42,892 nucleotides of DNA from Asterionella formosa (Eukaryota), in assembly GCA_002256025.1 (NCBI GenBank), contig NKIB01014504.1:1-42892 (forward strand), given 5' to 3'. This document shows positions 1,105 to 40,735 of the stretch, one piece after another. Below the pieces are notes generated by a model, which had not been told where the DNA came from, searched no databases, and saw nothing but the letters and a program-made list of their open reading frames with translations. A program made the position numbers and the translations under genes. Numbering within the stretch: the stretch's first letter is position 1; each line of letters starts with the position of its first letter.

Positions 1105-4100
1105 ATGGCACCTAAACAGATTTTTCCTCGAAAGCAGTTTGCTTATGATGAAATTCCATCGACCCCTGCGACGGAGCCACCACTCCCCTTTTCGAATGCT
1201 GCCAAGAATCATATTCCCAACCCGTACATGAATACAAATATTACCCACGAGCAGATTGCTGCCATTCGGGCAAAGGCAACCATTCAGGGCCAAACTATGG
1301 ACTATCCACAACCTGCAGAACTGTACCCCTCCGAGTTTCCTTATTTTGTTCGCGGCCGTGATTCACTCCGGCAGTACATCACGTCATTATTTACTTCTCA
1401 GATTGCCATGTATGATGGAGCTATGGGTACCATGATCCAGAATTATGCCAAGAGAAACACGCTAGGTGAAGAAGAGTTCCGCGGCGAGCGCTTCAAGGAC
1501 TGGACCTGTCCCGTAAAGGGAAACAATGATATGTTGTCAATTAGTCAGCCTCACATCATCCAAGGAATTTACCGTCAGTACTTGGAGGCTGGTTCGCACA
1601 TGATTGGCACCAACACGTTCTCGTCAACTACGATCGCTATGGCAGATTACGAGATGGAGGCATATGCTTACGAGCTCAATTATGCTGCTGCTAAATTGGC
1701 AAGGTAAGGGCTGTTACCCTGTCTCGCCGCGCTCCTCCCCCGTACAATGCAATGCAATACAATTCAATTGATTGATTGTGAACATGCTGCTGTTTGAGTT
1801 GTTAGTTGTTTTTGTCAATGTATGATTGATTGTGAACATGCTGTTGTTTGAGTTGTTAGTTGCTTTTGTCAATGTATGATTCCATTTGTAGTGTCTGACA
1901 AGATATTTTTCTCACCTTCTCCTTGATTGAAATGTCCCTTGTTGCAATTTTTTTTCAAATAATCCGTACTTCAACATTCATCATTACAGAGAGGTTTGTG
2001 ACGAGATAACCGCACTTGACCCCACAAAGCCCCGATTCGTTGTTGGCGCTCTCGGACCAACCAACCGTACCGGAAGTATCAGTCCAAGTGTAGAGGACCC
2101 TTCAGCTCGCAACGTGACATTTGACGAGCTTGTTGCCACCTACCTGGAACAGGTTGTTGGTCTCGTGGACGGAGGATGTGACATTTTGATGGTGGAAACA
2201 ATTTTCGATACTTTGAATGCGAAGGCAGCCTTATTTGCTATCGGGGAGTATCTTGAGTTTAGCGGTCTGGACATTCCAGTGTTTATCTCCGGCACCCTTG
2301 TAGACCAATCTGGTCGTACCTTGTCAGGTCAGACCGGCGAGGCATTCTATGCGTCAGTGAGACACGCCAAACCCATGTGTGTTGGTGAGTGCCATGGTCC
2401 CTTGTTTCGTGCCTTTCATTTTGTGTGTGTGCGTTTGTATGTTTATATTGTTTGAAAGATTGATGCTTTCTAACGTTGTGTATTGCATTTGTTTACCTTG
2501 TTTACTTTCATTCTAGGATTGAATTGTGCTCTTGGAGCCCAACACATGATTCCCTTCGTGGAGCGTCTTTCCAAGGTAGTAGAATGCTTCATGCACGTCT
2601 ACTCGAATGCTGGTCTCCCCAACGCCATGGGTGGCTATGACGAGAGTCCTAGTGATATGGCTGAAAACTACAAATCCTTCTTCGACAATGGTTGGGTGAA
2701 TCTAGTTGGTGGTTGTTGTGGGTCCACCCCACCGCATATCAAAGCTATTTCCGAAGAGGCTGCAAAGTACAAGCCTCGCAAGCTTCCTGATGTCGGCAGG
2801 CCCAAGATGTGGCTTTCTGGACTGGAGGATTTGATTGTCGACGATGTTGTCAATCATTTGGGTATGCCATTCTTGAATGTAGGCGAGCGTTGCAACATCA
2901 GCGGTTCCATCAAGTTCAAGAAGCTGATGATGGCTGGTGACTATGGTGCAGCCATGGATATTGCCAAGAAGCAGGTCGAGGATGGAGCACATGTGATTGA
3001 TATCAACGTGGACGATGGTATGCTTGACGGCCTCGCTGCAATGCAGAAGTTTGTGAAAATTGCTGTTACGGAGCCTGAGATCGCCAAGGTCCCGTTCATG
3101 TTGGACGCTAGCAAATTCGAGATAGTGTTGGCTGGTCTGAAGTGGTGCCAGGGTAAACCAATCGTGAACTCAATTTCATTGAAGGTCGGCGAGGAGCTTT
3201 TCAAACAGCATGCAACGTTGTTGAAGAAGCACGGTGCAGCAGTGGTTGTGATGGCTTTCGACGAAGAGGGCCAAGCTGCAACAGAATCAGAAAAGGTCCG
3301 TATCTGCAAACGCAGTTATGACATCCTCGTCAATGAGGTTGGTTTCCCACCTGAGGACATTGTGTTCGATCCTAACGTGTTGACGATTGGTACTGGTATG
3401 GAGGAACATGCAAACTATGCAGTTGACTTTATCAATGCCACGAAGACGATCAAGGAGCAGTGTCCGTATGTTAAGATTTCAGGAGGTATTTCGAACTTGT
3501 CGTTTGGGTTCCGCGGAGTGACGAAGGTACGCGAGAGTATTCACTCCGTGTTCCTTCAACACGCGATTCTCGAGTCTGGTATGGATGTCGGTATTGTGAA
3601 CCCCCATGAAATGATAGCGTTTGATGACATGGAAGAAGATATGAAGGTTCTGTGTGAGAATCTTGTATTCAATAAGAATGAAGATGCCACTGAGGACATG
3701 TTGAATCGAACCAACTATGAACGTGCTTGTGTAGAGGCCAAAAAGAAGGGACAAGAGCCACCAAGAAAGCCACGGGGCAAGCCGATCGTTCGACCTCGTC
3801 TTAAATTCGATTATGATTACGTTGAACCAACGGCTGCCACGGAGCCACCACTCCCCTTTTCGAATGCTGCCAAGAATCATATTCCCAACCCGTACATGAA
3901 TACAAATATTACCCACGAGCAGATTGCTGCCATTCGGGCAAAGGCAACCATTCAGGGCCAAACTATGGACTATCCACAACCTGCAGAACTGTACCCCTCC
4001 GAGTTTCCTTATTTTGTTCGCGGCCGTGATTCACTCCGGCAGTACATCACGTCATTATTTACTTCTCAGATTGCCATGTATGATGGAGCTATGGGTACCA

Positions 4101-7100
4101 TGATCCAGAATTATGCCAAGAGAAACACGCTAGGTGAAGAAGAGTTCCGCGGCGAGCGCTTCAAGGACTGGACCTGTCCCGTAAAGGGAAACAATGATAT
4201 GTTGTCAATTAGTCAGCCTCACATCATCCAAGGAATTTACCGTCAGTACTTGGAGGCTGGTTCGCACATGATTGGCACCAACACGTTCTCGTCAACTACG
4301 ATCGCTATGGCAGATTACGAGATGGAGGCATATGCTTACGAGCTCAATTATGCTGCTGCTAAATTGGCAAGGTAAGGGCTGTTACCCTGTCTCGCCGCGC
4401 TCCTCCCCCGTACAATGCAATGCAATACAATTCAATTGATTGATTGTGAACATGCTGTTGTTTGAGTTGTTAGTTGTTTTTGTCAATGTATGATTGATTG
4501 TGAACATGCTGTTGTTTGAGTTGTTAGTTGCTTTTGTCAATGTATGATTCCATTTGTAGTGCCTGACAAGATATTTTTCTCACCTTCTCCTTGATTGAAA
4601 TGTCCCTTGTTGCAATTTTTTTTCAAATAATCCGTACTTCAACATTCATCATTACAGAGAGGTTTGTGACGAGATAACCGCACTTGACCCCACAAAGCCC
4701 CGATTCGTTGTTGGCGCTCTCGGACCAACCAACCGTACCGGAAGTATCAGTCCAAGTGTAGAGGACCCTTCAGCTCGCAACGTGACATTTGACGAGCTTG
4801 TTGCCACCTACCTGGAACAGGTTGTTGGTCTCGTGGACGGAGGATGTGACATTTTGATGGTGGAAACAATTTTCGATACTTTGAATGCGAAGGCAGCCTT
4901 ATTTGCTATCGGGGAGTATCTTGAGTTTAGCGGTCTGGACATTCCAGTGTTTATCTCCGGCACCCTTGTAGACCAATCTGGTCGTACCTTGTCAGGTCAG
5001 ACCGGCGAGGCATTCTATGCGTCAGTGAGACACGCCAAACCCATGTGTGTTGGTGAGTGCCATGGTCCCTTGTTTCGTGCCTTTCATTTTGTGTGTGTGC
5101 GTTTGTATGTTTATATTGTTTGAAAGATTGATGCTTTCTAACGTTGTGTATTGCATTTGTTTACCTTGTTTACTTTCATTCTAGGATTGAATTGTGCTCT
5201 TGGAGCCCAACACATGATTCCCTTCGTGGAGCGTCTTTCCAAGGTAGTAGAATGCTTCATGCACGTCTACTCGAATGCTGGTCTCCCCAACGCCATGGGT
5301 GGCTATGACGAGAGTCCTAGTGATATGGCTGAAAACTACAAATCCTTCTTCGACAATGGTTGGGTGAATCTAGTTGGTGGTTGTTGTGGGTCCACCCCAC
5401 CGCATATCAAAGCTATTTCCGAAGAGGCTGCAAAGTACAAGCCTCGCAAGCTTCCTGATGTCGGCAGGCCCAAGATGTGGCTTTCTGGACTGGAGGATTT
5501 GATTGTCGACGATGTTGTCAATCATTTGGGTATGCCATTCTTGAATGTAGGCGAGCGTTGCAACATCAGCGGTTCCATCAAGTTCAAGAAGCTGATGATG
5601 GCTGGTGACTATGGTGCAGCCATGGATATTGCCAAGAAGCAGGTCGAGGATGGAGCACATGTGATCGATATCAACGTGGACGATGGTATGCTTGACGGCC
5701 TCGCTGCAATGCAGAAGTTTGTGAAAATTGCTGTTACGGAGCCTGAGATCGCCAAGGTCCCGTTCATGTTGGACGCTAGCAAATTCGAGATAGTGTTGGC
5801 TGGTCTGAAGTGGTGCCAGGGTAAACCAATCGTGAACTCAATTTCATTGAAGGTCGGCGAGGAGCTTTTCAAACAGCATGCAACGTTGTTGAAGAAGCAC
5901 GGTGCAGCAGTGGTTGTGATGGCTTTCGACGAAGAGGGCCAAGCTGCAACAGAATCAGAAAAGGTCCGTATCTGCAAACGCAGTTATGACATCCTCGTCA
6001 ATGAGGTTGGTTTCCCACCTGAGGACATTGTGTTCGATCCTAACGTGTTGACGATTGGTACTGGTATGGAGGAACATGCAAACTATGCAGTTGACTTTAT
6101 CAATGCCACGAAGACGATCAAGGAGCAGTGTCCGTATGTTAAGATTTCAGGAGGTATTTCGAACTTGTCGTTTGGGTTCCGCGGAGTGACGAAGGTACGC
6201 GAGAGTATTCACTCCGTGTTCCTTCAACACGCGATTCTCGAGTCTGGTATGGATGTCGGTATTGTGAACCCCAGTGAAATGCTTGCCATTGAAGAAGTTG
6301 AACCTGCCATGCTCAAGGCTGCTGAAGATCTAGTATTCAATCGGACAGAAGAGGCAACAGAGATCATGCTTAATTTAACAACAAGGGAAAAGGAATTGAT
6401 CGAGCTTCGTAAAAAGGGTGGAGGTGGGGAGAAAATAAAGGAGGCATCTTGGCGTGATCTTGAATGCAGGAAACGTCTCGAACATGCTCTGATCAACGGA
6501 ATCTCTGAATATGTCGACGCAGATGTCGAGGAAGCCCGTCAATTTTGTGACAAGCCTCTCGATGTCATTGAGGGACCCCTTATGGACGGGATGAATACTG
6601 TAGGGGATCTCTTTGGCTCTGGTAAAATGTTTTTGCCACAAGTCATCAAGTCGGCACGAGTGATGAAGAAGGCTGTTGCATATCTTTTGCCATTTATGGA
6701 CGAAGAAAAGCGTCAAAATATGATCGCCGAGGGTCTTGACCCTGCTACATTCGACGAAAACGATGATTCCAATTATGCCGGAAAGGTTCTAATGGCGACG
6801 GTGAAGGGCGATGTCCACGATATCGGGAAAAACATTGTTGCTGTTGTACTTGGATGCAATAACTACAAGGTGTATGATATCGGTGTCATGTGCTCTTGTG
6901 AAAAGATCCTTGAGGCCGCGAAGCAATATAATGTGGACGTCATTGGCTTATCCGGATTGATCACTCCTTCCCTTGATGAGATGGTTGATGTCGCCAAACA
7001 AATGTCCAAATCTGGCTTCACTGTTCCACTATTGATTGGAGGTGCAACCACCTCCAAGATGCACACCGCTGTTAAGATTGCGCCTAACTACTTTAGCCTG

Positions 7101-8258
7101 GATCATCCTGTCATCCACGTCCTTGATGCTTCTAGATCCGTTACTGTTGTTTCTTCTCTTCTCGGCGAGAACAAGACTGAGTTCACAAGTGATATCCTGG
7201 AAGAGTACAACGAGATGCGCGAAGACTACTATGCTGGTCTGGAGGATCGCTACTTTCTCACGTTCGCTCAAGCCAAGGCTGCCAAGCTTAACATTGACTT
7301 CGACGCAGTTCCCCCGGCACCGGCGCCAAAATGCTTGGGCGTTACTACGATTGATTCTGTAAAGATTGCTGACATTGTTTCGTACATTGATTGGAATCCT
7401 TTTTTTCAAACTTGGGAGCTCCGTGGTCGCTATCCCAACCGTGGCTACCCCAAGATTTTTGACGATGCAGCCGTTGGTGTGGAAGCCAAGAAGCTCTTCG
7501 ATGATGCTCAGTCCATGATGCACCAGATCATTGCCGATGGAAGCATGACACTCAAGGGTGTGTGTGGCATCTTCCCCGCAAATAGAAGTGCCGACGGAGA
7601 AGACGTTGATATTTTCGAAACTGAAGAAGCGAGAGAGGCTGGTACCCCTCTTTCCACATATTGCATGCTAAGACAACAAGCAGAGAAGGAGAGCGAAGAC
7701 CCATTTTTGAGTCAGGCCGACTTTATTGCCCCAGCTGGCTACAAGGACCACTTGGGTATGTTTGCAGTTTCATGTTTTGGATGTGATGGTTTGGTTGCCA
7801 AGTACGAAAGCGAAAATGACGATTACTCCAAGATTATGGCTCAGGCTTTGGCCGATCGCTTTGTTGAGGCATTTGCTGAATACTTACACAGACAGATTCG
7901 TACCGACATGTGGGGATATGCCCCCGATGAGAATTTGAACGAAGCTGATTTGCTTAAGATCAAGTATGATGGTATCCGCCCTGCTCCTGGCTACCCTTCA
8001 CAGCCAGACCATACCGAAAAGACCACAATGTGGGAGCTAACCCGTGCCAAGGAATTGGCAGGCATGGAATTGAGTGAATCTCTTAGCATGCTTCCCGCAT
8101 CGTCAGTGTCTGCCCTTGTCTTTGCTCACCCCCAATCTCAATACTTTGCTGTCGGTCAGATTGGCAAGGACCAAGTGGAAAGTTATGCCGAGCGCAAGAA
8201 GATGGAAGTAAGTGTTGTTGAACGTTGGTTGTCGCCTATTCTAAACTACGAACGTTAG
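1105..8258 (+). CDS. METH: Cobalamin-dependent methionine synthase with tandemly duplicated Hcy-binding + folate(pterin)-binding modules (5 exons, ~2105 aa)
   Basis: Exons 1105-1703, 1990-2384, 2517-4371, 4658-5052, 5185-8258 are joined by GT-AG introns (1704-1989, 2385-2516, 4372-4657, 5053-5184). Total 6318 nt, open throughout. Splicing restores [18 protein letters not shown] and CV|GLNC. Motifs present twice: [31 protein letters not shown] and GGCCG (Zn ligands), [21 protein letters not shown]. Motifs present once: cap domain ([23 protein letters not shown]), B12 motif [17 protein letters not shown], AdoMet domain RPAPGYP. Confidence 0.95.
1171..3604 (+). repeat. Copy 1 of 2434-bp intragenic direct repeat in METH
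   Basis: Matches 3839-6272 at a constant offset of 2668 bp, including both introns. Differences seen by eye: 1790 C/4458 T, 1894 T/4562 C (both intronic) and 2998 T/5666 C (synonymous Ile). Confidence 0.97.
1771..1881 (+). repeat. 54-bp tandem duplication inside METH intron 1 (repeated in intron 3, ~4439-4549)
   Basis: ATTGATTGTGAACATGCTGYTGTTTGAGTTGTTAGTTGYTTTTGTCAATGTATG starts at 1771 and again at 1825. Confidence 0.9.
3839..6272 (+). repeat. Copy 2 of 2434-bp intragenic direct repeat in METH
   Basis: Begins ACGGAGCCACC and ends GTGAACCCC, as does 1171-3604. Confidence 0.97.
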
Positions 8259-8511
8259 GTAACTATGATTTTGGAGCTAAATATTACTCGGAGTATTACA
8301 TGTACTTTTTCTATTTAGTTGGTTCATTCGAAATGGACTACATCTTGTTTCCTTCGATATAGTCTATGTACAACTAATTAGGTACTTCTCATGAGCAAGT
8401 CTAATGTATTGCTTTTATCACATCACGGTAGTAGTTTCGTAGTGTAGGATTTCCTGCAATGATGTAATTATAAATTACCCAAAAGGGATGTGTTTATATG
8501 AAATGACTCAA

Positions 8512-9517: not shown

Positions 9518-10978
9518 ATGATGGCGACGATGAGTATTCATAATGCTGATGATACTTTGCTCGGTCCTCTCAATGATAGCTTCAAGTTCTTCATCGCCAA
9601 TTTAGCGTCGCATATGACAGCGCCAGATATCAAAGCGTTCTTTAGCGTAAGCGCTGCAAATGTTTTTGTCATTGTCGATTCATGCTGATTATTTTGTTTC
9701 TCATTCCTAGTATTCCAATTCCTAAACATTATTCCTATTCTACCATTCCTATACATACTATTATTCCATTTTTATTATAATCAGTCCTTCGGAGTGGTCA
9801 ACTTTGTCAAGCTCATCTATGAAACGAACAACAAGGGCGGAGAGAAAAAATCCAAGGGGTATGGGTTCGTGTACATGTATGATGCTGCAGGGGACGCAGC
9901 TGTTCAGAACTATTTGGACTACCATCAGAATCGAATAGAACTGTTGGGCCAATCTCGAGTTTTTATGAATCGACATGATTCAGCACGAGAAATGCCTTTG
10001 AGGCACAAGCGTTCCCGGGATGTGGCAGTTGCCAGCGTCCCAGCGGGACCTAATCACTTTGGGCAGCAACTGTATAGTAGTAGCCAAGGATCCTATCCAC
10101 AGCCAATGCCTCCTCTAGAATATGCTACTCCATATTCTCAAATCAGTCCAGGGTATTATCCCTCCTATCCACAGCAGCAACCGAATGGTACACCACAGCA
10201 AGGGTATCCTCAAAGCAACCATCAGCAAGGGTATTCTCAAAGCAGCCATCAGCAAGGGTATCCTCAAAGCAGCCATCAGCAGCCCTATTTTGATCAACCA
10301 CCAACACAATATGGAGGAGGTTACAATAACCACAACAACAATGGCTTTCCCGAAACTTACCAACCGACCAACCAATACTCGTGGGCGATGAACCATATTG
10401 GCCATTTCCAAGGCGGAGGGAATGATCCTTCCTATTCGCTACCCCACCACCATCACCACCCCTCAAATGATCCATACATTCGGGAGCCACCAAATAATAT
10501 GAACCATTACCCACACACAAATCAGGTTCATCAAGATCACAACTACAATAGAATATCACAACCATCATCATACAGTAATAAGCAGCCAGTTCAGAATAAA
10601 GACAATGAGAACTACGAGACGCAAAGACCAGCAAGACCATACAATGATGCCACTACAAAGGTATTTCTTGAAAATCTTCCCGAGGACGTTACTCCCAAGA
10701 CTGTAACAGAATGTCTGAAAGCACACCATTTGATTGCCAAGAGATGTACAATGGAGTACAATGCGCAAGACAACACTTCCTCTGCTCGGGTGGAATTGAA
10801 TAGCCCTCAAGATGCCAGCAAATGTTGTATGCTGGCTAAAAATAAGGAACTGAACTGTGGGGGACGAACATTGAAGGCATCGCTAGACCGACCACCAAGA
10901 CCCAACCACAACAAAAGTCGGGGTGGTGGCAGAAATCATGGGCCTCGGCGGGAAGGTCGTCGGGATCGGCCCTATTGA
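9518..10978 (+). CDS. Two-RRM RNA-binding protein with Q/N/Y/P/H-rich low-complexity linker and Arg/Gly-rich tail
   Basis: Exon 1 9518-9646, intron 9647-9784 (GTAAGC..TCAG), exon 2 9785-10978. Splicing joins RNP2-like KFFIANL to RNP1 KGYGFVYM. A second, degenerate RRM begins KVFLENLPEDVT. The choice of start ATG is uncertain. Confidence 0.88.
10196..10282 (+). repeat. 27-bp coding tandem repeat (QQGYPQSSH-like x3)
   Basis: CAGCAAGGGTATYCTCAAAGCARCCAT occurs three times in tandem. Confidence 0.88.
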
Positions 10979-11729: not shown

Positions 11730-13121
11730 TTAAGCAGCTGACTTGAGTTTGCCTTGTTCACATTCTGCAAGAACAGCATCTAAAGCACTTTCCATAGTTT
11801 CCACCGTCCCAGATATATCCCCCAACTTGTCCAATCCGAAGAGTCCCATACGGAATGTGAGTAGACCATCTGGCTCATCAATTCTCCACGGGACACCCAT
11901 GGCAATTTGAAGTCCTTGCGCCTTGAACTTGGCCATCATCATGGGATTTTCCTGACCGACGGGCGAATAGTACACAAGGACACCAGGTGCTTGAAATCCA
12001 GGTGCAGCCACAGATGTAAGTCCTCTCGAGTCCAGGGATCCTCTTGCCGCCAAACCCAAATCCAACTGAGCTTGCTTGAGTTCTGGAAGACCAAATTTCA
12101 AGGTCTCGACAGAGATTTCATGAAAGTCCCTAAGCGCGTCTGTTGGCATGGTGGTGTGATATCCAAAGCCTCCCTTTTCGTACGTGTCCATAATGGCAGA
12201 CCATCTCTTGAGCGACATGCTAAAGGATGTTTCCTTGGTGGTAGTCATTTTTTCCACGGCAGCAGGTGACATCATAACGAGGGCGGCAGCGGCAGACCCA
12301 GTCCATCCCTTTTGAGGAGCAGAAATGACAACGTCGAGCCCAAGCTCCTTCATGTCGACCCATACAGTTCCCGAGGCGATGCAGTCAAGAACAAATAGAC
12401 CGCCAACTTCGTGCATGGCAGCAGCAGCTTGTTTAATGTAATCATCAGGAAGCATCATTCCAGTGGACGTTTCGACGTGAGGTGCGAACAAGACGGCAGG
12501 TCGTTCTTGATGAATCTTTTGGATAAGATCAGCAATGGGATAAGGTGCGTATTGCATGTGATTAGATCCTTCCGTTGGTTGTGGCAGAGCCTTGAGGACC
12601 GTGTGTGACGAAGGGATCGAGTTTTCCTTCCCCATGTCAAAGATTTCGGTCCATCGGAAGGAAAACCAACCGTTGCGAATGACCATGACATGTTCGTTAG
12701 TAGCGAACTGGCGAGCCACGGCTTCCATTCCATAGGTTCCAGATCTGGAGGGATACGATATTAGAGAATTGTTAGTGAGGAAGCTTACTATAGATATTCG
12801 ACGTGAGCATTCACAAAGGGAAAAAGAGCTTCGGACAGCTCAGTGCACGTACCCCGGAATGATGGCCACCTTCTCCGCTTGGTAGGTTTCCTTGAGCAAT
12901 TCATTGAGATCTCGCATGACTTGTTGAAAGGGACTGCTCATGAGGTTCAGCGAGCGATTCGTGAAAATGACAGAATACTCTTTGAACTCGCCGAGATCTT
13001 GCTTCGGCACGACGCCGTAGTTCAGGTTTGCACCCTGCTTGGCTGTAGTGCTGAAAGCTCTGGCGGCTCGGCTAGGAGCTCGGCGGACCAGCGACCTAGC
13101 TGCTGATCGCATCATCATCAT
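11730..13121 (-). CDS. Class V PLP aminotransferase, serine-pyruvate/alanine-glyoxylate type, with mitochondrial-type presequence
   Basis: Exons 13121-12853 and 12744-11730, intron 12852-12745 (GT..AG). Splicing yields IIPG|SGTYGMEAVARQF. Class V motifs HVETSTG, VLDCIAS and SAPQKGW (PLP lysine), plus FRMGLFG. N-terminus MMMMRSAARSLVRRAPSRAARAFSTT. Confidence 0.92.
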
Positions 13122-17412: not shown

Positions 17413-18191
17413 ATGAAGATTACGCTACAGTCATCCGCTTCGCTGGGGGCCTTGCTTGTTCTAAGTATGCCACTTGCAACAAAGGCTAGCTTCTCTATTA
17501 TTTTACCTAGCGGGGAAGAGGAATGCTTCGCTGTTTTAGCGCCGTACAATCAATCAAGTATCGTTTAGTACGTCAAAACTCTTGATTTTGAGGCATATTC
17601 ATGTATTGCCAGACGTTTAGGTAGCTTGATAGTCGCAGTGCTTTTTGTTGTGTCTAACCAAAGTGTCTGCTCACTATGGTATACAGTGGAGACTTTGATC
17701 TGTTGGATGACGATTTGTCCTCGACTCCCATCTCCGCTCGATTGGAGTCGGACGAACAGATCCTCTGGAGCTCGCACAGCACCGATACGGAGGGAATGTT
17801 TGAAGTAACGACGAAGGTGGGAGGCAAGCACCGGCTATGCTTGGAAAACGGAAAACATTTCAGGGGGGACGGATTAGATCGACACGTGGGGTGGGCCATA
17901 CGTGTCAGAAAGCAAGCCACACGAGCCCTGGAAGAGGGTGTCCTAGGACCAGATCAAGAGCGAGCCTTGGAATTAGTGAGTTGGGCTGAAAGTCTCTCAT
18001 TGGATTGGGAGTCCATGTTGGATCATTATGGGTATTTGAGAGATAGAGAAACAGCACACACCATCATGTCAGATAGTATCATGTCACGAGTGGTACGGTG
18101 GACAATATTGGAGGGACTGACCCTGCTATTGATTGCCTTGGCGCAAGTTATGTACCTGCGCAAATTCTTTGAAAAGCGACGCTATTTGTAG
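17413..18191 (+). CDS. p24/emp24/gp25L GOLD-domain cargo receptor
   Basis: Exon 1 17413-17567 (signal peptide, ..GEEECFAV), intron 17568-17686 (GTACGT..CTAAC..ACAG), exon 2 17687-18191. Second GOLD Cys in GKHRLCLEN, coiled coil, TM helix, tail QVMYLRKFFEKRRYL. Confidence 0.92.
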
Positions 18192-19224
18192 TTCTGAACT
18201 GAAGAGTGGATAATTGATTCACTTTTGTGATCTGGGCATGTTTTGACGAGTTGTATATCTCATGGTTGTGTTATTCATTAAGCTATTCCATTATATGAAG
18301 TTTTTATTAGCTTTGCTTTTGAATGACCCAAGCACCTCCATAAATTATTTGTGAGAATTTGCATTCTAGGAAATATTCTATTGTTCATTCAATGTCTGAA
18401 TCTTGTCAGAGAATCTTGGGTCAGTACATGATGGAGGAAATAGCATCTTTTGGTGGTGATGATACTGAGTGGACCTTTCTGTTTTACAGTTCATGTCAGG
18501 TGCTGTTCATCAATTTTTATGGTGCCATGCATCATACATAGCTAGCATTATTATACGGCTAGCTTGATCCTTATTCATGCAATTCTTGGTTGCTGGATGT
18601 AATCCCTAATGGCTAGCAAGCAATACCACCCCTGCAATGATAAAATTACAAGGCGAAAACTTTGCACCTACAAGAGAATAATCAAGAAAAGATCGAGATT
18701 TCAGCCACTGCAGCACCAAAGCCAAAATATGAAGTAGAATGGAAAATTTTTTCATAGGAATCAAACCCACACATTAAATAGATCCAAAAATAGTTACATT
18801 TTTGCCCTCCTGATTTGGATATATTTAGATATTCTGTTGGGATGCCATACAGTAGCTTAAGGGTAGTTATATTCCATCTATCTCTCCACCATGCATGTAT
18901 GTATGAGCAGACACAATCTTGGGGAGGGAAAGTGGAGAAAGTATCACATTGTTGTGTTGAGTCCCCAACCACCTTTGCAACAGCAGTGGGGGAAGAAACA
19001 CCAACACTGCGAGGAGCATCTAGGAGTGCAGAAATCGAGCAAAAACAACGAGGTTACGTCTCCTTGACGCACTCCTTGCCTTTTTGTTCGAAATATCAAA
19101 ATGACTCTTGCGGTATCACAATGACTCTGTGTGTCAATAAAATGGCAGCCCATGCTGTTATATCGGGTACTCCAATATAATTCTTGTTAGTTTCTTCGCT
19201 TGCCTCTATTGCATTTGAGCCACA

Positions 19225-21261
19225 ATGTCAGAAGATACGGGACAAAGTGGCAAAACGGTTTCAAGCCAGAGCGATGATGATGATGATGATGAGGTTCGCC
19301 GAAACGAAAACCTACAGCAGGAGCTTGAACGTGGCCATGCCAGAAGTGTCCTAGTAGGGACTTCCGAGGGGTTACAAAAGGACAACCCGTCTCAACGTCC
19401 TGGTCATTCAGGTAGTGGCGATACAAGCCACCACCAGTCAAACGGTGTCGATCGAGTGGCACACAGATCACATCAAATGGCGAAACAGGACAACGAAGAT
19501 GCGCGGGCGAGTGGTGGTGGTGGTGCATCTCAGAACATACATGGGCGAAGTGATTCAAAAGCCACTCGAGGAATCCAGCCGGGAGGGCCGCTGCCGGGAG
19601 CCTACAGCGTTTGTCGCAGGGCACGAGGAGAAGTTCCCGCATGGGGTCTTCAAGATAACAGCGGCAATGACAGGACAGTCAACGCACTTACAGCTGATAT
19701 CATTGGCGAAAGTGTCACACTACACGACACGTACCAGCGGAATGAGGAGGCATTCGAACAGTCCGAACTTGAACATTCCACCGTTGATCGCAAGATCCAT
19801 CCGCATCGAAAATACATGCTGCTCCTCTTATGTGTACTCGTAATTGCAGGAATTGCTATTGGTGTGGGAATGGCGGTCAGAGCGAGAGCGGCACCGGCAC
19901 CTGCCGTTGCATCGAATCCTTGTGATTTCACAAAAAACGTACAGCCCGATTTACAAACGCTATGCTCTTGCTATGGAAATATCACAGTGCTTCCTAATGA
20001 TACGCTGGCTCAATACAACATTTTGCGAGATGTTCTCGGTCTCTCAGCCCAACCCGCAGACTTGGGGACATGCAAGCCCGAAAATTTTGCATTGTTTCTT
20101 CTTGGAACACATAATACCACATACAGCAACGAGACTCTGCTGAATAGGTATGTTTTGAATCTGATGTACCTGTCTATGGGAGGTCCAAGCTGGAAAAACA
20201 AAGATGGCTGGCTAATGGCAAGTGATACATGTGTATGCTGTATCTATGGGGTGACATGTGTTCGAGAAAGTGTGGTTAGCATATCCATGCCAAAAAATAA
20301 CATTACTGGCTCCATTCCTTCACAACTGGGTATATTGACTGACTTGACAGACCTTAACCTCTCCAACAATAAGATTTCTGGGGGAATCCCGACTGATTTG
20401 GGCCAGTTAACTGACCTTGTTGACCTTCAACTGAACGACAATACAATTGCTGACAGCATTCCTTCTGAATTGGGTTTGCTTATAAAGTTGCAAACACTTG
20501 ATTTATCAACAAACGAATTGATTGGCTCTTTACCAAGCGAGATTTGGAATTTAACTGATTTGAGATCCTTCTCCATGATTACAAATAAATTGGAAGGGCT
20601 AATCCCCGCTGAGCTGGGCAAACTTACCAAGTTGGAAATGTTTGCTGTTGCCTCTAACAAACTGTATTTTGATGGCATATTCCCGTCTTGGAACATGTCA
20701 ACTCTAACAAATCTGGATGTGTCCAAGACTGGAATAACAGGAATTATACCTGCATCGAAGCTGTCACTCATGACTGGCCTAGTCACCCTGAATCTTGATG
20801 ATAATGCGATCAATGGTACCATACCAACAGAGATAGGGTTGTTGGGGGATCTGAAATTTTTATTTCTCTCCACAAATAAATTGACTGGCACAATCCCCAC
20901 AGAACTGCTCATGACTGGCCTAGTCACCCTGAATCTTGATGATAATGCAATCAGTGGTACCATACCAACAGAGATAGGGGTATTGGCGAATCTGAAATTT
21001 TTATTTCTCTCCGAAAATACATTGACTGGCACTATCCCCACAGAACTGGCTGCATGCACTGATCTTCTAGAGATTAGAATTGGCGGGAATGAAATCTCAG
21101 GAGTGGTGCCTCCTGTTGAAAACTCCACAACTGGCCTTTGCTCCCTACGCGTGAAAGGTCAATTAACAATTTTTGAAGCAGATTGCGGTAACAAAGTGAA
21201 ATGCTTTTTTCCGGACTGTTGTACTGTATGTACAGATACTCCTATCAGGAGACTTAGCTAA
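19225..21261 (+). CDS. Membrane-anchored leucine-rich-repeat protein (disordered N-terminus, single TM helix, plant-type LRRs, Cys-rich C-cap; no kinase domain)
   Basis: Intronless 678-aa ORF. PGAYSV motif, TM MLLLLCVLVIAGIAIGVGMAV, LRRNT (WKNKDGWL..C..YGVTC), about 11 LxxLxLxxNxLxGxIPxE repeats, C-terminal ADC..KC..DCCTVC. Confidence 0.93.
   Translation: MSEDTGQSGKTVSSQSDDDDDDEVRRNENLQQELERGHARSVLVGTSEGLQKDNPSQRPGHSGSGDTSHHQSNGVDRVAHRSHQMAKQDNEDARASGGGGASQNIHGRSDSKATRGIQPGGPLPGAYSVCRRARGEVPAWGLQDNSGNDRTVNALTADIIGESVTLHDTYQRNEEAFEQSELEHSTVDRKIHPHRKYMLLLLCVLVIAGIAIGVGMAVRARAAPAPAVASNPCDFTKNVQPDLQTLCSCYGNITVLPNDTLAQYNILRDVLGLSAQPADLGTCKPENFALFLLGTHNTTYSNETLLNRYVLNLMYLSMGGPSWKNKDGWLMASDTCVCCIYGVTCVRESVVSISMPKNNITGSIPSQLGILTDLTDLNLSNNKISGGIPTDLGQLTDLVDLQLNDNTIADSIPSELGLLIKLQTLDLSTNELIGSLPSEIWNLTDLRSFSMITNKLEGLIPAELGKLTKLEMFAVASNKLYFDGIFPSWNMSTLTNLDVSKTGITGIIPASKLSLMTGLVTLNLDDNAINGTIPTEIGLLGDLKFLFLSTNKLTGTIPTELLMTGLVTLNLDDNAISGTIPTEIGVLANLKFLFLSENTLTGTIPTELAACTDLLEIRIGGNEISGVVPPVENSTTGLCSLRVKGQLTIFEADCGNKVKCFFPDCCTVCTDTPIRRLS
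20767..21048 (+). repeat. 141-bp (47-aa, two-LRR) tandem duplication in the LRR gene
   Basis: CTCATGACTGGCCTAGTCACCCTGAATCTTGATGATAATGC starts at 20767 and again at 20908. The copies are highly similar at DNA level. Confidence 0.92.
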
Positions 21262-22809: not shown

Positions 22810-25094
22810 TTGCAATTTGCAATGTCTTTGCAGACATTGCAATGGTGTCATCTGTGTAACTACAAATTTCGGAAGAACAAATCCCCATCTGAGTCTCACA
22901 ATCGAAATTGTAGCAACCGTGTTTTTTATGCATATGGTCACTGTCGACATTGCATGCAAGAACATAGAGTTCCTGGAAAACATAATGAAACTATGTATAG
23001 CGGTAGTGCATCGAATCATTCAAGGAAAAAAGTTAATGATGGCAGTGTAACTGCTGCAGCATTTAGGGAGATTAGACAAGAAGAGATTATGTGTCCTATC
23101 CTTGAATCAACTGACCACAATCATCGACTTCATGACGACAGCGACAATTCAGCTTATAACAATATTCAGTCACAACAGGACGAACAATTGAGACTTAAAA
23201 CTCTCCAAGGGTTGAATATTCAGATTTTAAAGATTGCACCGGCTTTCTCCCTGAAAATGCAATGGAAATGCCCCTTCCTCCTCAATTTCAACTTCCAAGT
23301 AAACATTCTCTGAACATGCATGGATCCAATTGAATTAGAACTCATGTTATTCCTCAATGAGAATTACCTTTCACCAGTTTACTTTGATCATCTAATGAAA
23401 TGGCTGTTCAAGGCCAAAGCAATGAAATATTTTGATGGAAGGTAGTCTATCAAGCTCCATACTACCAGACTTTGGAAAAACGCATGGATATTTCATTTCC
23501 ACCAACATTAGCTGGCGGTCAAATGTTGACCAAATAAAAAAAGATTGATAACAATTCAAACATGATCATCCCATGCACACTCCATTATTTCGATCCAGTA
23601 CAGCTTATGGCAGGATTGTTAAGTGATTCCGATATCATGCAACATTTTGTATGTCACCCACAAGTGAAACTTACAACTGGAGAACGCATACATGACGAAG
23701 TAACTTCTGCGACTTGGTTTAAAAATGCATTCAACCATTCTCCTGCATCAGAAAATGGAGTGTTGAAGACAGGGTGTTTATTTGTTGCCCTAGCAGTTTT
23801 CAGTGATGGTTCACCTATTGATAAACAAATGAAACATTCCGAGCATCCGCTTTTGCTGACAATGTTAAACTTAACGTTAGAAGGAAGGAAAAATGGTGAT
23901 GGATGGCAATTAGTATCTCTTTTGCCAGACATTGAGGTCAGTGATCTGGAGAAACAAATGAATAATAAGTTATCTGGTGACGACTTGTCCTTATGTAGAC
24001 TCACATTTAAAATTGAAAGTAATGTTCCCTGCCAAAGTATTTTCAGATGCCATCCGAAATGGATTAATGATTCAAAGGCAGGAGTCTCTGGTCGTGAATG
24101 GTTTGACTGGGTCGAAGTGAACTGGGAGAAGGGAGATGGATCAAGTTCCTACAAAGATCCTGCAAAACTACTGTTTTTGTAAGTGGTTCATTACATACAG
24201 AAAACAAACAATAGAAGATGAGTTGAAAAATACCATCAATGCAACTGAGGGTATTTCTACAGAAATTGATTTCGAAGGAATGATTCCGGATACAATGATG
24301 TTGCCTAGTAGGTCGCCTGATAATATTGGAACGTCGCCTAAATACATATTCCATTCAATTCTCTGCTTCATCGTCAAATGGTCTATGGACTATAGCAGGT
24401 GCCCCTAATAAGATTGGGCATGCTGTATCACGGAGTAAGTATGCAACCTTGTGTCAATTGGTTCTTCCTGATTTACCGAAGGGGCCAACTACGTAACGAG
24501 CATTGCGAATTCAGCAATAGAAATAGCAAGAATTAAAAGTCTTGAAGATGGGGTTGGGCCTGCTGTTTTCATTTGTAAGGATTGACTTATATTATCATGT
24601 TAAAATTGAAAGTAACGTTCCCGGCCATACAACTACTATTTTCAGATGCCATCCGAAACGGAATAATGATTGAAATGCAGGAAGCTCTGGTCGTGAATGA
24701 TTTGACTGGGTCGAAGTGAACTGGGAGAAGGAAGATGGATCAAGTTGCTTCCTTCACAGTTCCTACAAAACTACTTCTTTGGGGAAATGTTATTTCTCCA
24801 ACACAACAATCATTCTCTTAGCGTGTATTCGTTCCTTGAAAAGTTCAACTGAAATGGAAATTCATAAATGTAGCTATGTTTTTTGCAAGAGGAGACATCT
24901 TATGCAATGATACAACTGAATTGAGCGTTGTTGAATTTCATAACATACTTTCGGCAGCATTTGTTGTTCCTGCTTTGAAACCACAGGAATCAAGGATATA
25001 TCTGAAACCGCAAGAAATTTTGGAACAGATACGGAAATATAATTTTTATTTTGCCATGATGCCTCCACGTAATTTATGGAAATCAATCGGGTGA
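22810..25094 (+). mobile_element. Internally deleted, frameshifted Plavaka-like (CACTA/CMC-related) DNA transposase remnant
   Basis: GERIHDEVTSATWF..LAVFSDGSPID..HSEHPLLLTMLNL..GR..GWQLVSLLPD resembles the Plavaka first catalytic-Asp region. It is fused directly to the C-terminal IFRCHP..WFDWVEVNW..PAKLL motif, and the end fragment reads ILSAAFVVP..PPRNLW. Recognised by pattern only; no HMM search run. Confidence 0.7.
24007..24775 (+). repeat. Internal ~150-bp duplication within the transposase remnant (~24007-24170 and ~24600-24775)
   Basis: TAAAATTGAAAGTAAYGTTCCC..TATTTTCAGATGCCATCCGAAA..CTCTGGTCGTGAATG.TTTGACTGGGTCGAAGTGAACTGGGAGAAGG occurs twice. The second copy has stops. Confidence 0.88.
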
Positions 25095-28865: not shown

Positions 28866-29564
28866 ACCAAATGCAGAAACGAAAGAGCGATATGAAAATG
28901 AAATCATTCTATAACTATAGCTATGTGGACAGTAGTCTGTTACGCACATTTTCGTATCTCCTTCTATGCTGAATCTCAATAGTAGATGTAGTATCATGTG
29001 AGAATTGAAAATGTCAACGAGAACAAGTAGAATGTGTTTGTTTAGGGGACAGGTTGATTGGCGAAATTGTCACGCTGAAGTCGACGAAACGGATTTACTT
29101 GGAGCGCTGTGTGCGGAACCATTACGAGTTCGAATGATTTCTTCTCTCTGCCTGTAAACTCTTAATTGAATGATTATGAACAAAAGTTCACTGCACATGA
29201 CGATTACTCGAAGATATAATGATCACTTGACCAACAATTGAAGACCTTTTCGCAAACATTCATTCCGCTTGTCATCGCTAGTATTTCGTTGTTGTTGCAA
29301 AAATCGGAGTGATGACGGATGCAAATGACGAGCCAAATTACATTACTTGAGCAGGTACATTATCCTACCAAGAAATTCGAATACAGGAGTCAAATAGAAA
29401 CAATACATATAATACTTAAATATATGTAGTCAAAAGGGTTACTATTTAAATTACAAAGGTATTTATCAAAATTATTAGATGATATAACGAAAAATTATGA
29501 TCAGATGATCACAATCCTATGATGCATCATGGAAATATGATAGTTTTTATTTGCAGACAAACCT

Positions 29565-30870
29565 AAATTCCAATCCATCTTTCTCAACCAATTTTAGGCC
29601 AATCTCTATCTAATATAGTATTCGATGTACCTGAAATCAAAGGCTTCTGATCGATTGCCAATATGATCAGAACGAACCAATATTGTCTAAAGGAGGCATC
29701 AGGATGTGTAAATTTCAGCTGCCTGCTGTGGACTGATGGCCACTGCTTTAACAACCAAACTTCCAATCCATCTTTCTCTACCAATTCCTTTTCAACTTGT
29801 ATCTAACATAGTATTCAATGTACACGAGATCAATGCCGCTATTTTGATTGTCGATAAGCTCAGAACGAACATATATTGATCAAATTGGTCATCAGGATAC
29901 TGTGTAATTTTTTGGTGCTTGTGGCCTGATCATTAGTAGGGCAGCATCCAAAAAAAACCAAATAACCCTTTTCAACCAATTTAAGGCCGATTTTTATCTA
30001 GCATAGTATTTGATGTACACGAAATCAATGCCGTCATGTCCAATGTCGATATACTCAATGCAAGCATATATTGATCAATGGAGGCATCAGGATGTGTAAA
30101 ATTTCGGTGCTGCTGTGGACTGATGCATGACCAGTGCTGTAGCAACGAAAATTCCAAAACATATTTCTCCACCGATTTGAGGCTGCTTTCTATCCAGCAT
30201 AGTATTCGATGTACACGAGATCAATGTCGTCATGAGCAATGTCGATTATTTCAGAACGAGCATATATTGATAAAATTGGCCATCAGGATGTGAAAATTTT
30301 CGGTGCTTGTGGCCTAATCATCAGTGCTATGGCAACAAAACCTCCAAACCAGCACCTTTCTCCACCAATTTAAAGCCGATTTTAGTCCAGCACAGTATTC
30401 GATGTACACGAGATCAATGTCGTCATGAATAATGTCTATATGCTTAGAACGAGCATCTATTGATCAAATTGGTCATCAGGATGGTGTGTAAAATTTCTGT
30501 GCTTGCTGTGGACTTAACATCAGTGCTGTAGAAACAAAATTTCCAAACCATCATTCTCCACCAATTCAACGCCGATTCATATCTAGCATAGTATTCGATG
30601 CTGTACACGAGATCAATTTCGTCATGGCGAATGTCGATATTCTCAGAACAAACATATATTCATCAAAGGAGACATCAGGATGTGCAAATTTTCTGTGCTT
30701 GTGGACTGATCATCAGTGCTGTAGAAACAAAAATTCCAAACCATCATTCTCCACCCATTTAAGCCGATTTCTATCCAGCATAGTATTCGATGTCCACAAG
30801 ATCAATGCCGTCAAAACGAATGTCGATATACTCATAACGAACATATATTGATCAAAGGAGGCATCAGGAT
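29565..30870. repeat. Satellite A: ~7 diverged tandem units of ~194 bp
   Basis: Anchor AYAGTATTYRATG at 29615, 29808, 30003, 30199, 30392, 30588 and 30780 (spacing 192-196). CATCAGGAT and ATCAATG recur in the units. Confidence 0.93.
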
Positions 30871-31242
30871 GAGTAGATGGGAGGCGATTGTGGCACTTCT
30901 CTTTTTTGATTTACAACCATAGGATGTGCTATTATGCCATGATGATAGTTAGTACAACAACAGGGAAGCACCAAAACTCAAAACTATTATTATCAACCAA
31001 ATTGCATCCATCTACTACGTCGCTAAAAGTTTTATTGGTCAAATTAGACATCAGCAAATATTTTCGGAGTGTATTGACTGGTGGTGTGCAGAAAAGCGAA
31101 ATATTGCGAAAAATACAGGTTATGGAGTGGCTGAATTCAATGAAGCTGATAGTCCTCATATCATTGGCCCTTGCATTTACAACAAATTTCTTATTGCTAC
31201 AGTTATCAATATAGATGTAATCTAGCCGATCGGGAAAAAAGA

Positions 31243-32005
31243 ATGCCATTACGGCACATCTCAATTTTGACTCACTATGGCGACATGAATTGAAGAATGT
31301 TCGAATATGCAACTGCTGTTTCTTCTAAACAATTTTACAATTCAATCGTTGACAGCTGCTCCTCCTCTGCTTCTTTTTCTATATTTTACTTGTTAGATTT
31401 ATCGCTGTAAACTATTTGTAGCCGCTCCGAAAAGAAGACGTCATCGCTGCACACCTCAATTTCGATTCACTATGGCGACATGCATTCAATTGTTGTCAGC
31501 TACTCATCCTTTCCTTCTTTTTCTATATTGAGCTTGCTAAAGTTATTCCTGTAGCCTATTTGTAGCTACTCCGAAATGGAGAAGGCCATTGTGGCACATC
31601 TCAATTTCGACTCACTACGGCGACATGCATTGAAGAATGTTAAAATACGCAACAGCTGTTTCTAAACGATTTAACGAAATCAATCGTTGACAGCTATTCA
31701 TCATTTTATTTTATTTTATATTGTACTTGCTAGAGATATCGCTGTAGAATATTTGTAGCCCCTCCGAAAAGGAGATGGCCATTTTGGCATATCTCAATTT
31801 CGACTCCTCACTAGGGCGACATGCATTGAATGTTAATTAATGCAACAGCTGTTTCTTAAGGAATTTACGAAGTCAATCGTTGACAGCTACTCATCCTTTC
31901 CTTCTTTTTCTATATTGAACTTGCTAAAGTTATTGTAGCCGCTCCGAAGAGGAGAAGGCCATTGTGGCACATCTCAGTTTCGACTCACAACGGCGACATG
32001 CAATG
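31243..32005. repeat. Satellite B: ~4 diverged tandem units, full unit ~195 bp
   Basis: Anchor GGCGACATG at 31279, 31474, 31619, 31815 and 31992 (spacing 195, 145, 196, 177). The short units carry internal deletions. Confidence 0.92.
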
Positions 32006-33029
32006 CTCAACGATGCTCAACGAGGACCACCGGTGCTTTATTTCTAATCTGGCAGGCTATTGTTATCTCTACAATCAAGAATGACTTATCAATGTGTCTA
32101 CAACAGCAACTAATACTACGTCTTCCTCTTGCATGTGTTGTTATATGCCAGTTGAAATCAAAAAAATGTCGGAGCAGGAAAAATAATAATAATTGATTCA
32201 TAATTGGCAACTCTTTCGGTAATTATATGGTGAAAGCAGCATAATGTTGCAGCGGTTCCTGCATAATTTCGATTTTATACAGTCGTAATGGCTAGTTGGT
32301 CAACATAAATTGTCCCGAACACACATGACTATTGGTGTGATCACACAATGATTCGATAAGTGAAATAAATTTTTGTTTAACACAAATAAATTAGGGAAAA
32401 AGTAACATAATATTTTAGAAAACTGACATAATATTTTAGAAAAGTAGTATAAATACGTCACTTTACACATAAATTCGAATAAGTGCCTTAAACGGCGTCT
32501 TAGATGTCTGCAAATAAAAAGTATCGTACTTATAAGATCAGGGGTAATTACAATAACTAGCAGAGAATCTTTCTATGCATGATACGCATTTTGTTATTTG
32601 TGCGATAGGTAGTACATAACATACATATGAATTTTTGATTAGCATGTTTATACTTATAAAGTTTGATTATAATGTTCTATTATTGATCAATATTGACTCA
32701 TAACGATAAACACAAGTAATCATACAAATACAGCAATTGAGTAACAACAACTCAAGTCAAAATCATCACTTCTATATGAATTTCAATCGCTTTTCTCATG
32801 ATCTCGAATTACTAATTGTATTTACAAGACCATCATTGATATACCTTAGCTACATCCTATATTATGTATTTGTTCATCTTATAGCCATATGAATACCATC
32901 TTATTTATATGAAAGTGTGGAAACGGATTGTAATTTAACTACTAAGATTAGAATTGTTTCTATCTATCTATATAAAGCCGAGATTGTTGCACACCAGCCA
33001 TCTCACTCCTGTTCACTCCCTTATCTACT

Positions 33030-38772: not shown

Positions 38773-40112
38773 CTTTCATGCAAGTTGTGTCGACTCTCGA
38801 AATTTTGTCCACTTTTGTGTGAGGGAAGCCGACGAATATCCGTAAATAAACGTAGTTTGCTACAATCAACAAGACAGTAGACACAGGGGAATAAGTCTAA
38901 TTTTAATTAAATGATCTAGAATAACCCAAGCCAGGCAAATGCTCGCCAATACAACGGCGAAAAACGAAGACCTAGTATAAGCCTTCAGATATTCAGGAAT
39001 GATGAGTACATACATCGCATAAAAGGCCCATTTTAGACGATAGTCCAATCGCAATCAGAACACCCAGAAGGAGACCCACAGATGAAACTCAAAAGTCCAT
39101 CACAAACACCAAGAACGTAAATCGGTAGCAAGTTACAAATCGAATTCAAAATAATAACCCGGAAACCCATCAGATATCTCACATTGTGGAGTTCTGAAAA
39201 ATTTATTGCTTTCTGCAAATCAATTGACGCTGATCTGTTTTTTTATGAACATAATCACTTATACCCCTTTTTTATCAGAAAACAAACCCAGATCAAGCCC
39301 AAGGAGTTTTCATTTATATCCGATCATAAAGGTGGCAACTTCGATTCACCATATATATCTACACATTCAATCAACTGAATTTTCCGAATGTGGTGTACCA
39401 TACAGTGCATCTACCTGTATGAATTTGGTATAGCTTTTACCTTGCTTTGATATACCCTGGTATATCTCGTCTACCGGTACGAAAACAGCAAGCGAAAAGA
39501 TTGTCATAGACGTGTCAATACTGGCTGGTTCATAGATCAGAATCTGCCATATTAATTAGTATGGATAATAATAGCCCATATGATAGATAAACTGAACAAA
39601 AATGTGATGCGAGCAATTGTTTAGGTCACATTAAAGCCCTATCCTGGAGGCGCCTACTGGTATATACATTTCATATGAACTCCTGCATATGCAATCCAAA
39701 GCTGACGATAATAGGCATTCATTGTAAATTTGTTGATGTTTCATTTGAGCCCTCTCCCCTAACCAAAGTTTTAGCGCGTATCGTCATTTATTTTTCAATA
39801 TAATTTTACTCAGTTTATTTACTATCATAATTGTAGAATCTTTGATTCAAACGAATGCAGAACTATTGGCAAAAAAATATTAGAGTGCCTTTTTCATTAA
39901 GGGTCCTGCATTTGAACCCCTAGCTCGAGGTAGGGTTAAAAAAATAATATTAAGTCAGAGTAGTCAAACATAGACTTCTTACGAGTAAAATGTAAATGTA
40001 TATCGCTAAACGGAGCTTTCACCAATACACACCCTTTCCACATGCTAAAATACAGTCATTTATCAAAGTAGGGGTATAGGTCAACGCTATATATCGTCAG
40101 GATATAGGATCT

Positions 40113-40235
40113 GGCGAGAAACTGCAGAAAGGAACTTCGGTTTTTTAACTATGCTAAAAATAGTGGATTTTACCGGGCTAACTCGTTTATTTGGCCTAGT
40201 AAAAAAACCGAAGTTCCTTTCTGCAGTTTCTCGCC
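40113..40235. repeat. Internal long inverted repeat, 34-bp perfect arms
   Basis: GGCGAGAAACTGCAGAAAGGAACTTCGGTTTTTT (40113-40146) and its reverse complement (40202-40235). A homologous hairpin lies at ~41331-41456. Confidence 0.93.
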
Positions 40236-40619
40236 GAAAGGTAACTTCTGGGGCTATATGAAGATTACCTATGTACCGGTACTTAACTCTTCTTCAAACC
40301 CTGCCAACGTTGAGCTATCGTCGTCCAAAAATTCGACAATATCGGCCTTTTCAACGGTCACCAAAACGTCGGAATCAGAATCAGTAATCGCCGAAACGTC
40401 ATCATCGGAATGGTAGTCTTGTGCTAAAATTTGTAGTCGTAAAATCTCGTGTACAAAAAGTTCCAACGTAATTGCCCGCTGTATTAATCATATTCTGATT
40501 GGCTATCCTTATATCCGTTCGATTGGCACGGTTTGCGAGGTCTTGCAATCCCACGCCGGCCACACTGGATACACATGAAGCATTTTCTTGCGTGTTGGCC
40601 GATCCTACCCGTATACCGG

Positions 40620-40735
40620 TATCCGTACGGAGTAGGAATACCGAGTACCGGGTAGACCTATCCGAAAACCATATCCGTACGGAGTAGGAATACCGAGTAC
40701 CGGGTAGAGTAGGAATACCGAGTACCGGGTAGACC
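40620..40735. repeat. Short tandem repeat GAGTAGGAATACCGAGTACCGGGTA x3 inside TIR element 1
   Basis: Copies at ~40630, ~40682 and ~40707. Absent from the homologous position in element 2. Confidence 0.88.

Follow-up and report, generated by a model that had tools for sequence, protein, structure and literature searches.

Cobalamin-dependent methionine synthases of the MetH/MTR type (human N-terminal half, PDB 9SSP and 4CCZ; Thermus, 8G3H and 8SSC) canonically carry one N-terminal half, composed of a homocysteine (Hcy) barrel and a folate (Fol) barrel, per cobalamin-binding (Cob) domain. A departure from this layout has been reported for Phaeodactylum tricornutum, in which a 2,280-bp 'intron' of the METH model Phatr2 23399 encodes in-frame MetH and pterin-binding domains and is accompanied by expressed sequence tags; the section in question (Bromke & Hesse 2015, PMC4523565) describes a probable duplication in this one species, asks for its verification and does not treat age, breadth, homogenisation or function. 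Here, we analyse contig NKIB01014504.1 of the Asterionella formosa assembly GCA_002256025.1 (42,892 nt, the whole contig, without N; hereafter the window), in which a METH gene at positions 1105–8258 of the forward strand encodes two N-terminal halves per cobalamin domain. The gene is real and spliced, homogenisation of its two copies continues and extends to introns and silent sites, and the junction between them evolves as a conserved position of its own. The doubled region of Phatr2 23399, as described in that section, is almost surely the same duplication. We favour, with fairly good confidence, a reading in which an old tandem duplication is kept alike by intragenic homogenisation, both modules work and one tethered cobalamin serves either head.

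As a process, the closest described analogue is the methanogen pair mtrA-1/mtrA-2, for which the available text of PMC4632066 and PMC6053082 reports domains that conversion has kept alike for very long periods beside position-specific parts. It is likewise a corrinoid methyl-transfer system and likewise convergent, but it consists of separate prokaryotic genes, whereas the METH units are 670-aa catalytic didomains, variable in number, that share a single eukaryotic gene and are homogenised together with their introns. Spidroins and other repeat proteins (available text of PMC3933166 and PMC5100051) also have within-gene repeats that are more alike than orthologous units; their repeats are structural or binding, while those of METH are whole catalytic halves of a core metabolic enzyme. 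The double barrel of MetE (PMC539065, as cited in PMC10861871) is another methionine synthase shaped by intragenic duplication, yet MetE is an unrelated enzyme whose halves have diverged, with zinc bound by the C-terminal barrel only (PMC539065 and PMC10861871, in the parts available). A literature search, with most subscription papers and supplements outside its reach, returned no account of the breadth, homogenisation or function of the METH duplication, nor was the duplication found in the available main text of PMC11439496, PMC6451014, PMC10861871, PMC11197592 and PMC3901274, supplements again lying outside the search.

The duplicated module and its junction in the window

The METH gene has five exons and four GT-AG introns and encodes 2105 aa, with the terminal stop as the sole stop in that reading. 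Pfam detects two Hcy (PF02574) and two pterin-binding (PF00809) domains, followed by single copies of Cap (PF02607, 6471–6686), Cob (PF02310, 6780–7064) and the AdoMet reactivation domain (PF02965, 7365–8201). The layout is [ext-Hcy-Fol]-junction-[ext-Hcy-Fol]-Cap-Cob-AdoMet, where ext is an N-terminal extension of about 80 aa with no Pfam match, and the order of the domains is that of MetH/MTR. Both Hcy barrels have the three zinc-binding cysteines, which we take to lie in the motifs GLNC and GGCC (their spacing agrees with human C260/C323), and both folate barrels have the folate-binding Asn/Asp/Asn/Arg at the spacing of human N470, D537, N579 and R585; what is presumably the MetH cobalamin motif, DxHxxG, occurs once, as DVHDIG. 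Judged from its sequence, the protein is a layout variant of MetH/MTR and not another family. It differs from the described enzymes in its two N-halves per cobalamin, in the predicted ordered extension on each and in the conserved junction, and no PDB match longer than 1265 aa was found among the 18 PDB sequences matched.

Core 1 (1171–3604; module 1, aa 23–694) and core 2 (3839–6272; module 2, aa 773–1444) each comprise the extension, the Hcy/Zn barrel and the folate barrel. Both are 2434 bp long, at an offset of 2668, and they differ at exactly three positions: two in intron 1 (1790/4458 and 1894/4562) and a synonymous Ile codon (2998/5666, ATT/ATC), the module proteins being identical. Each core contains 418 bp of intron, divided between intron 1 (286 bp; 1704–1989 and 4372–4657) and intron 2 (132 bp, identical in the two modules; 2385–2516 and 5053–5184), and 2 of the 418 intron sites differ. 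None of 309 fourfold-degenerate sites differs between the cores, against six of seven in the adjoining flank. Purifying selection alone was ruled out as the cause of the identity, given that introns and fourfold sites share it. A search of the genome with the core returned no copy beyond these two. Intron 1 of both modules contains a 54-bp tandem duplication (1769–1881 and 4437–4549).

Between the cores lies an in-frame junction of 78 aa (3605–3838). Its first part (3605–3751) encodes C-terminal helices of folate barrel 1 and matches, ungapped and at 23 of 49 residues, the terminal-type helices that lead from folate barrel 2 into Cap (6273–6419); none of 100,000 shuffles scored as high. A Pro/Lys-rich linker recognized in alignments, QEPPRKPRG (3752–3778; family consensus KKGLPPPRKPRG), is followed by a diverged copy (3779–3838) of the PR..F.YD motif found in the unique N-terminal 22 codons (1105–1170), with which it shares 7 of 20 residues (p about 5e-4). 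Directly outside the cores, DNA identity drops to 82/147 (3' side) and 29/60, and 9 of the 23 same-residue codons of the 3' flank use a different codon. The original prediction, made from this stretch alone, had described a non-random spacer homologous to both flanks and set between near-identical cores, introns included, with abrupt boundaries; all of this is confirmed by the counts above.

In a genome fragmented into 15,436 contigs, a doubled module might stem from an assembly stutter, from collapse or polishing of diverged copies or from a recent duplication. We compared window positions 3605–8400 with contigs from 4 of 24 listed runs (X1, X2, X3 and X5, belonging to four studies). X1, X2 and X5 each contain one 294-nt contig in which the junction is flanked by the last 30 nt and the first 30 nt of a core, and a contig in X3 runs from the junction to 5665, inside core 2. 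Because the loose ends at the core start carry N-terminal sequence in X1, X2 and X5, the assembly graph is a loop with the breakpoints of the window. The core is a single 2016-nt contig in X2 and X5. Its depth in the DNA-like X1 is 12–17, compared with 7.9 for the junction and 6.9–7.6 for the main C-half contigs, and this ratio of about two to one therefore indicates two modules (depths of RNA contigs were excluded from copy-number and expression estimates). Both intron types are spliced in X2, X3 and X5 (RNA or RNA-like), as seen in pieces shorter than the gene. X2 may be the source sample, but X1, X3 and X5 carry variants of their own, and the junction and both breakpoints recur in these three further studies. 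Six core sites in X1 differ from the window inside contigs of about twofold depth, and two further sites form bubbles of about onefold depth, a pattern suggestive of variants spreading into both copies, as supporting evidence only, since contigs drop variants. The doubled module is not an assembly artefact. The independent contigs show one undiverged core at about twice the depth rather than diverged cores merged by polishing and, together with the junction in 111 of 120 listed relatives (see below) and megabase contigs bearing two modules in Nitzschia inconspicua and three in Skeletonema marinoi, they largely refute an artefact or a recent duplication, to which we give next to no credence.

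Distribution, age and concerted evolution in stramenopiles

A search with the junction region, which selects for the junction, returned 187 long proteins, of which 120 were listed; among these, 78 have at least two complete modules, 33 keep the junction with incomplete modules and nine lack the junction. The listed relatives with two or more modules span diatoms, among which the window METH is placed in the METH tree, a pelagophyte and labyrinthulomycetes. Two- or three-module records occur in Nitzschia inconspicua, Epithemia clementina, Chrysophaeum taylorii, Hondaea fermentalgiana and Mucochytrium quahogii, and Skeletonema records have one, two or three modules. Between species, the junction is conserved at 37 of 49 aa while eight of nine fourfold sites have changed. 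Since this junction is shared across stramenopiles, it does not stem from a recent fusion of METH paralogues, the origin that would have told against the original prediction. These protein comparisons show that a tandem duplication of the whole N-terminal half preceded the split between diatoms and other stramenopile lineages. By the same records, the duplication predates the diatom/pelagophyte split and, barring horizontal transfer of the gene, the labyrinthulomycete split too; resolution is poor for the deep stramenopile branches of the METH tree. The duplication would then be several hundred million years old. Given that 33 of the 120 listed matches combine the junction with incomplete modules, and that 90% clusters hold both ~2085-aa and ~1385-aa METH members, many algal METH records of normal length may be collapsed.

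A METH record from Euglena longa (P0111) falls within the stramenopile clade and has the stramenopile junction at its start, which suggests that gene transfer of the duplicated form occurs. P0104, attributed to Sphagnum compactum, is probably a contaminant: this METH is of stramenopile type, with two modules and a shortened extension. P0165 and P0166 are two-module METHs sister to the stramenopile clade, with which they share only the FVxGxDS end of the extension.

In each of the 78 listed proteins with two modules, one module resembles the other more than it does the window. Within-protein core identity has a median of 100% (at least 99% in 62 of 78; minimum 82.9%), compared with 85.6% to the window. 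When 160 modules were placed in one tree, the modules of 73 of 79 proteins formed a clade for each protein; four of the six exceptions are two protein pairs with identical cores, and the other two, P0039 and P0050, group by position. The 52-aa 3' flank after the folate barrel, in contrast, groups by position, with 7 changes of label compared with 53 after shuffling and none of 500 shuffles as low. It was placed in a quick IQ-TREE tree of 158 rows (two truncated ones excluded) from diatoms, the pelagophyte and labyrinthulomycetes, labelled internal or terminal; the alignment had 52 columns, and 90 of 149 inner branches of the tree are open. The first part of the window junction clusters there with the internal flanks from other species, those of labyrinthulomycetes and the pelagophyte lie next to those of diatoms (SH-aLRT 92), and one clade has had its terminal flank overwritten by internal-type sequence. 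In 69 of 79 proteins, homogenisation stops no more than 10 residues from the boundary seen in the window. The tree check proposed in the original prediction thus holds for cores, which group by protein, and for the 3' flank, which groups by position, while the 5' flank, the piece with the 7/20 match, groups by position only weakly (22/40 and 23/40).

DNA-level tests rest on two species, the second being a diatom represented by two loci from a metagenome pattern scan (L003 and L004; 76% DNA identity to the window core). Its copies differ at 0 and 1 of 2019 nt and at 0 of 306 fourfold sites, a silent site is T in both copies of one sample and C in both copies of the other, and the cores of L003 and L004 have no intron. 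For the folate barrel, the fourfold sites that differ number 0 of 107 within the window and 0 of 105 within L003, against 59 of 89 between the species. The comparison of silent sites in core and flank that had also been proposed came out as expected in the window (0/309 and 6/7, as given above). We regard an old duplication under concerted evolution as nearly certain, in agreement with the ongoing intragenic homogenisation originally envisaged.

The role of the additional module

At the DNA level, the homogenisation would proceed by gene conversion and unequal crossing-over between the cores, and the occurrence of one, two or three modules among Skeletonema records may be due to these processes. 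The inherited divergence of the junction would halt most conversion tracts at the GIVNP motif. Homogenisation may be a by-product of tandem identity, with selection acting on retention of the extra module and of the junction; since a single crossover between identical cores rebuilds a one-module METH, and yet many lineages have long retained the extra module, selection to keep it seems likely. Each module would function as an enzyme half, and the one Cap-Cob unit, on its flexible tether, would visit either. According to the available text of PMC13376404, the N-half, Cap-Cob and Act of human MTR move as independent modules, methyl-folate (MeTHF) binds first and tetrahydrofolate leaves last in Escherichia coli MetH, and oxidation of cob(I)alamin is thought likelier when MeTHF is short; inactivation of MetH is put at about once per 2,000 turnovers (PMC10293825, in the part available). 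With a second hinged N-half, a pre-loaded folate or Hcy site may cut the wait for substrate exchange, and a shorter life of the oxidation-prone cob(I)alamin may give more methionine per B12. We consider B12 economy a plausible reason for the extra module, just short of probable.

It is likely that both modules are catalytically used, to judge from their conserved residues. The three zinc cysteines and five folate-site residues are intact in 156 of 160 stramenopile-type modules, and all four departures lie in Hcy barrels. In 12 proteins with lapsed conversion and both Hcy barrels intact (the four proteins with departures being excluded), the differences between modules number 4 at invariant and 333 at variable positions (272 and 322 columns, respectively). 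Because these differences avoid invariant positions, module 1 is under purifying selection in its own right. P0051 and P0145, which are 5 residues apart and possibly from one organism, have lost a zinc ligand of the terminal Hcy barrel, which reads GGCSG instead of GGCCG, while module 1 keeps all three; they would provide a natural test of whether cobalamin reaches module 1. In a structure model of the relative P0059 (pLDDT 86.5, pTM 0.68), the extension is ordered and two confident junction helices precede a short low-confidence hinge before module 2, with pLDDT falling from 79 at the Pro/Lys-rich linker to 51 just downstream; the modelled module resembles the human N-half (TM 0.94, rmsd 2.4). 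A complex prediction made without alignment, of folate barrel 1 plus junction helices against module 2 (parts of P0012), scored 0.00 twice and weighs neither way, and an ESM Atlas search with the junction and extension gave a best score of 0.77 and no lead.

Several observations weigh against two working halves and a B12-sparing role, or limit the data behind them. The Hcy barrel of module 1 has decayed, with Fol1 kept, in P0038/P0350 and in P0039/P0045/P0046/P0050, two diatom lineages, so some diatoms can do without a second Hcy site. Among chlorophytes, drift at invariant columns is greater in the non-terminal folate barrels (36:337) than in the Hcy barrels (3:255; P0350, a stramenopile-type protein wrongly binned as green, was removed from these sums). 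Given that drift runs in opposite directions in the two groups, no single domain explains module retention everywhere, and the idea that only the extra folate barrel matters was not adopted. Nine of the 120 listed matches and several chlorophyte records have one module, and some of these may be true losses. The genome also has METE (a METE-family gene lies at G000:C395:16133-17107, L005), so B12 auxotrophy is not required, and the occurrence of the duplication in non-photosynthetic labyrinthulomycetes means that photosynthetic oxygen is not required either. As to the data, Logan contigs drop variants, which weakens the argument from shared variants, and short-read assemblers can copy one consensus to both places, so identities of 100% are upper bounds.

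The same duplication and homogenisation would also be compatible with an extra module that serves as a methyl-folate store or sensor, or as a docking site that shifts the equilibrium between resting and reactivation, and not as a catalytic partner. The dead Hcy1 of the two diatom lineages, whose Fol1 keeps all 5 folate residues checked, fits this idea, as does the fact that 0 of 160 stramenopile-type modules has lost a checked folate residue; in Thermus MetH, moreover, folate binding undocks the B12 domain (PMC10293825, in the part available). We nevertheless consider it unlikely, given that Hcy1 is under purifying selection in the 12 lapsed proteins and in green algae and that, in P0051 and P0145, three zinc ligands remain in module 1 alone.

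Alternatively, the extra module might be nearly neutral, preserved at no cost by conversion. A splice that joins a donor in module 1 to the corresponding acceptor in module 2 is in frame and, by inference from the sequence, would give a one-module enzyme of 1355 aa. The identical duplicated introns allow such skipping, which short reads cannot see; one-module records occur inside multi-module clades, and the Phaeodactylum gene model treats the copy as an intron. However, the junction is conserved as a protein (see above) and present in RNA contigs, the cores of L003 and L004 have no intron to skip with, module 1 is under selection where conversion has lapsed, and reduction to one copy is easily reached and, once reached, absorbing. 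Near-neutrality is thus highly improbable, and two working modules remain the reading that we prefer.

Multi-module enzymes in other lineages and their significance

A search for METH proteins of more than 1790 aa (120 of 147 listed) added 59 to those of the junction search, and all 59 have one Cob domain with two (39), three (18) or four (2) folate domains. These 59 include the enzymes of Chlamydomonas, Volvox, Chlorella, Trebouxia, Haematococcus, Bryopsis, Prorocentrum and Polarella, with modules that are mostly near-identical within a protein; chlorophyte METHs carry two to four modules, and dinoflagellate METHs three, on a single cobalamin domain. Fungal, streptophyte-algal and cryptophyte METH records have one module. 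A METH tree of 22 rows was built from 56 candidates, one-module records nested in multi-module clades being excluded because they may be collapses. This tree has multi-module proteins at three separate positions, and a single clade is rejected (p-AU 8.45e-6); the chlorophytes are sister to one-module records of Closterium and Mesotaenium. The distal linkers of stramenopiles, green algae and dinoflagellates showed no homology (hhalign probability 0.3, 0.1 and 0.0), though short linkers can lose signal. Multi-module METH has probably arisen separately in these three groups. One very old duplication in an early eukaryote, followed by many later collapses, would concern the origin only; collapse by unequal crossover is easy, and change counts on the tree cannot separate gain from loss, but the three placements, the sister position of the chlorophytes and the lack of detected homology among the linkers make it rather doubtful. 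Our broader proposal is that three lineages independently built a multi-headed METH, with two to four conversion-homogenised modules per cobalamin in cis, as a convergent B12-sparing design largely hidden by collapsed assemblies and gene models; we put it forward tentatively, as a possibility.

Downstream of METH, the window encodes a weak RRM protein (9689–10978), a weak class V aminotransferase (11730–12839), a p24/GOLD protein (17658–18191) and a leucine-rich repeat protein (19219–21261) with a 141-bp internal tandem duplication. A Plavaka transposase fragment (PF18759) lies at 23538–24182 on the forward strand, and diverged tandem repeat families of about 193 bp stand between 34-nt inverted repeats at 29526–32538, possibly a non-autonomous DNA transposon. 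The region 36438–38688 has Pro/Val/Ala-rich 30-bp tandem repeats with a period of about 1070 bp and a 443-aa minus-strand frame with Cys-rich blocks and no Pfam match. Two copies of about 80% identity, spaced about 1.2 kb apart and with internal inverted repeats, occupy 39897–41692. An open frame on the minus strand (42047–42892), also without a Pfam match, resembles by eye what we take to be the reverse transcriptase/RNase H end of a copia-type retrotransposon.

METH is a main B12 user in algae, and B12 supply is reported, in the literature available in part, to limit and shape phytoplankton communities. If the head-to-cofactor ratio of the algal enzyme differs, the efficiency of B12 use known from bacteria and humans may not apply. 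Peptide or read counts based on the repeated half would inflate estimates of enzyme number two- to fourfold. For enzymology, these proteins would offer a clean test of the reach of a tethered cobalamin domain, and nature provides variants in which one Hcy site is dead. In evolutionary terms, these proteins represent a eukaryotic, intragenic and probably convergent case of a phenomenon called very rare in the available text of PMC6053082.
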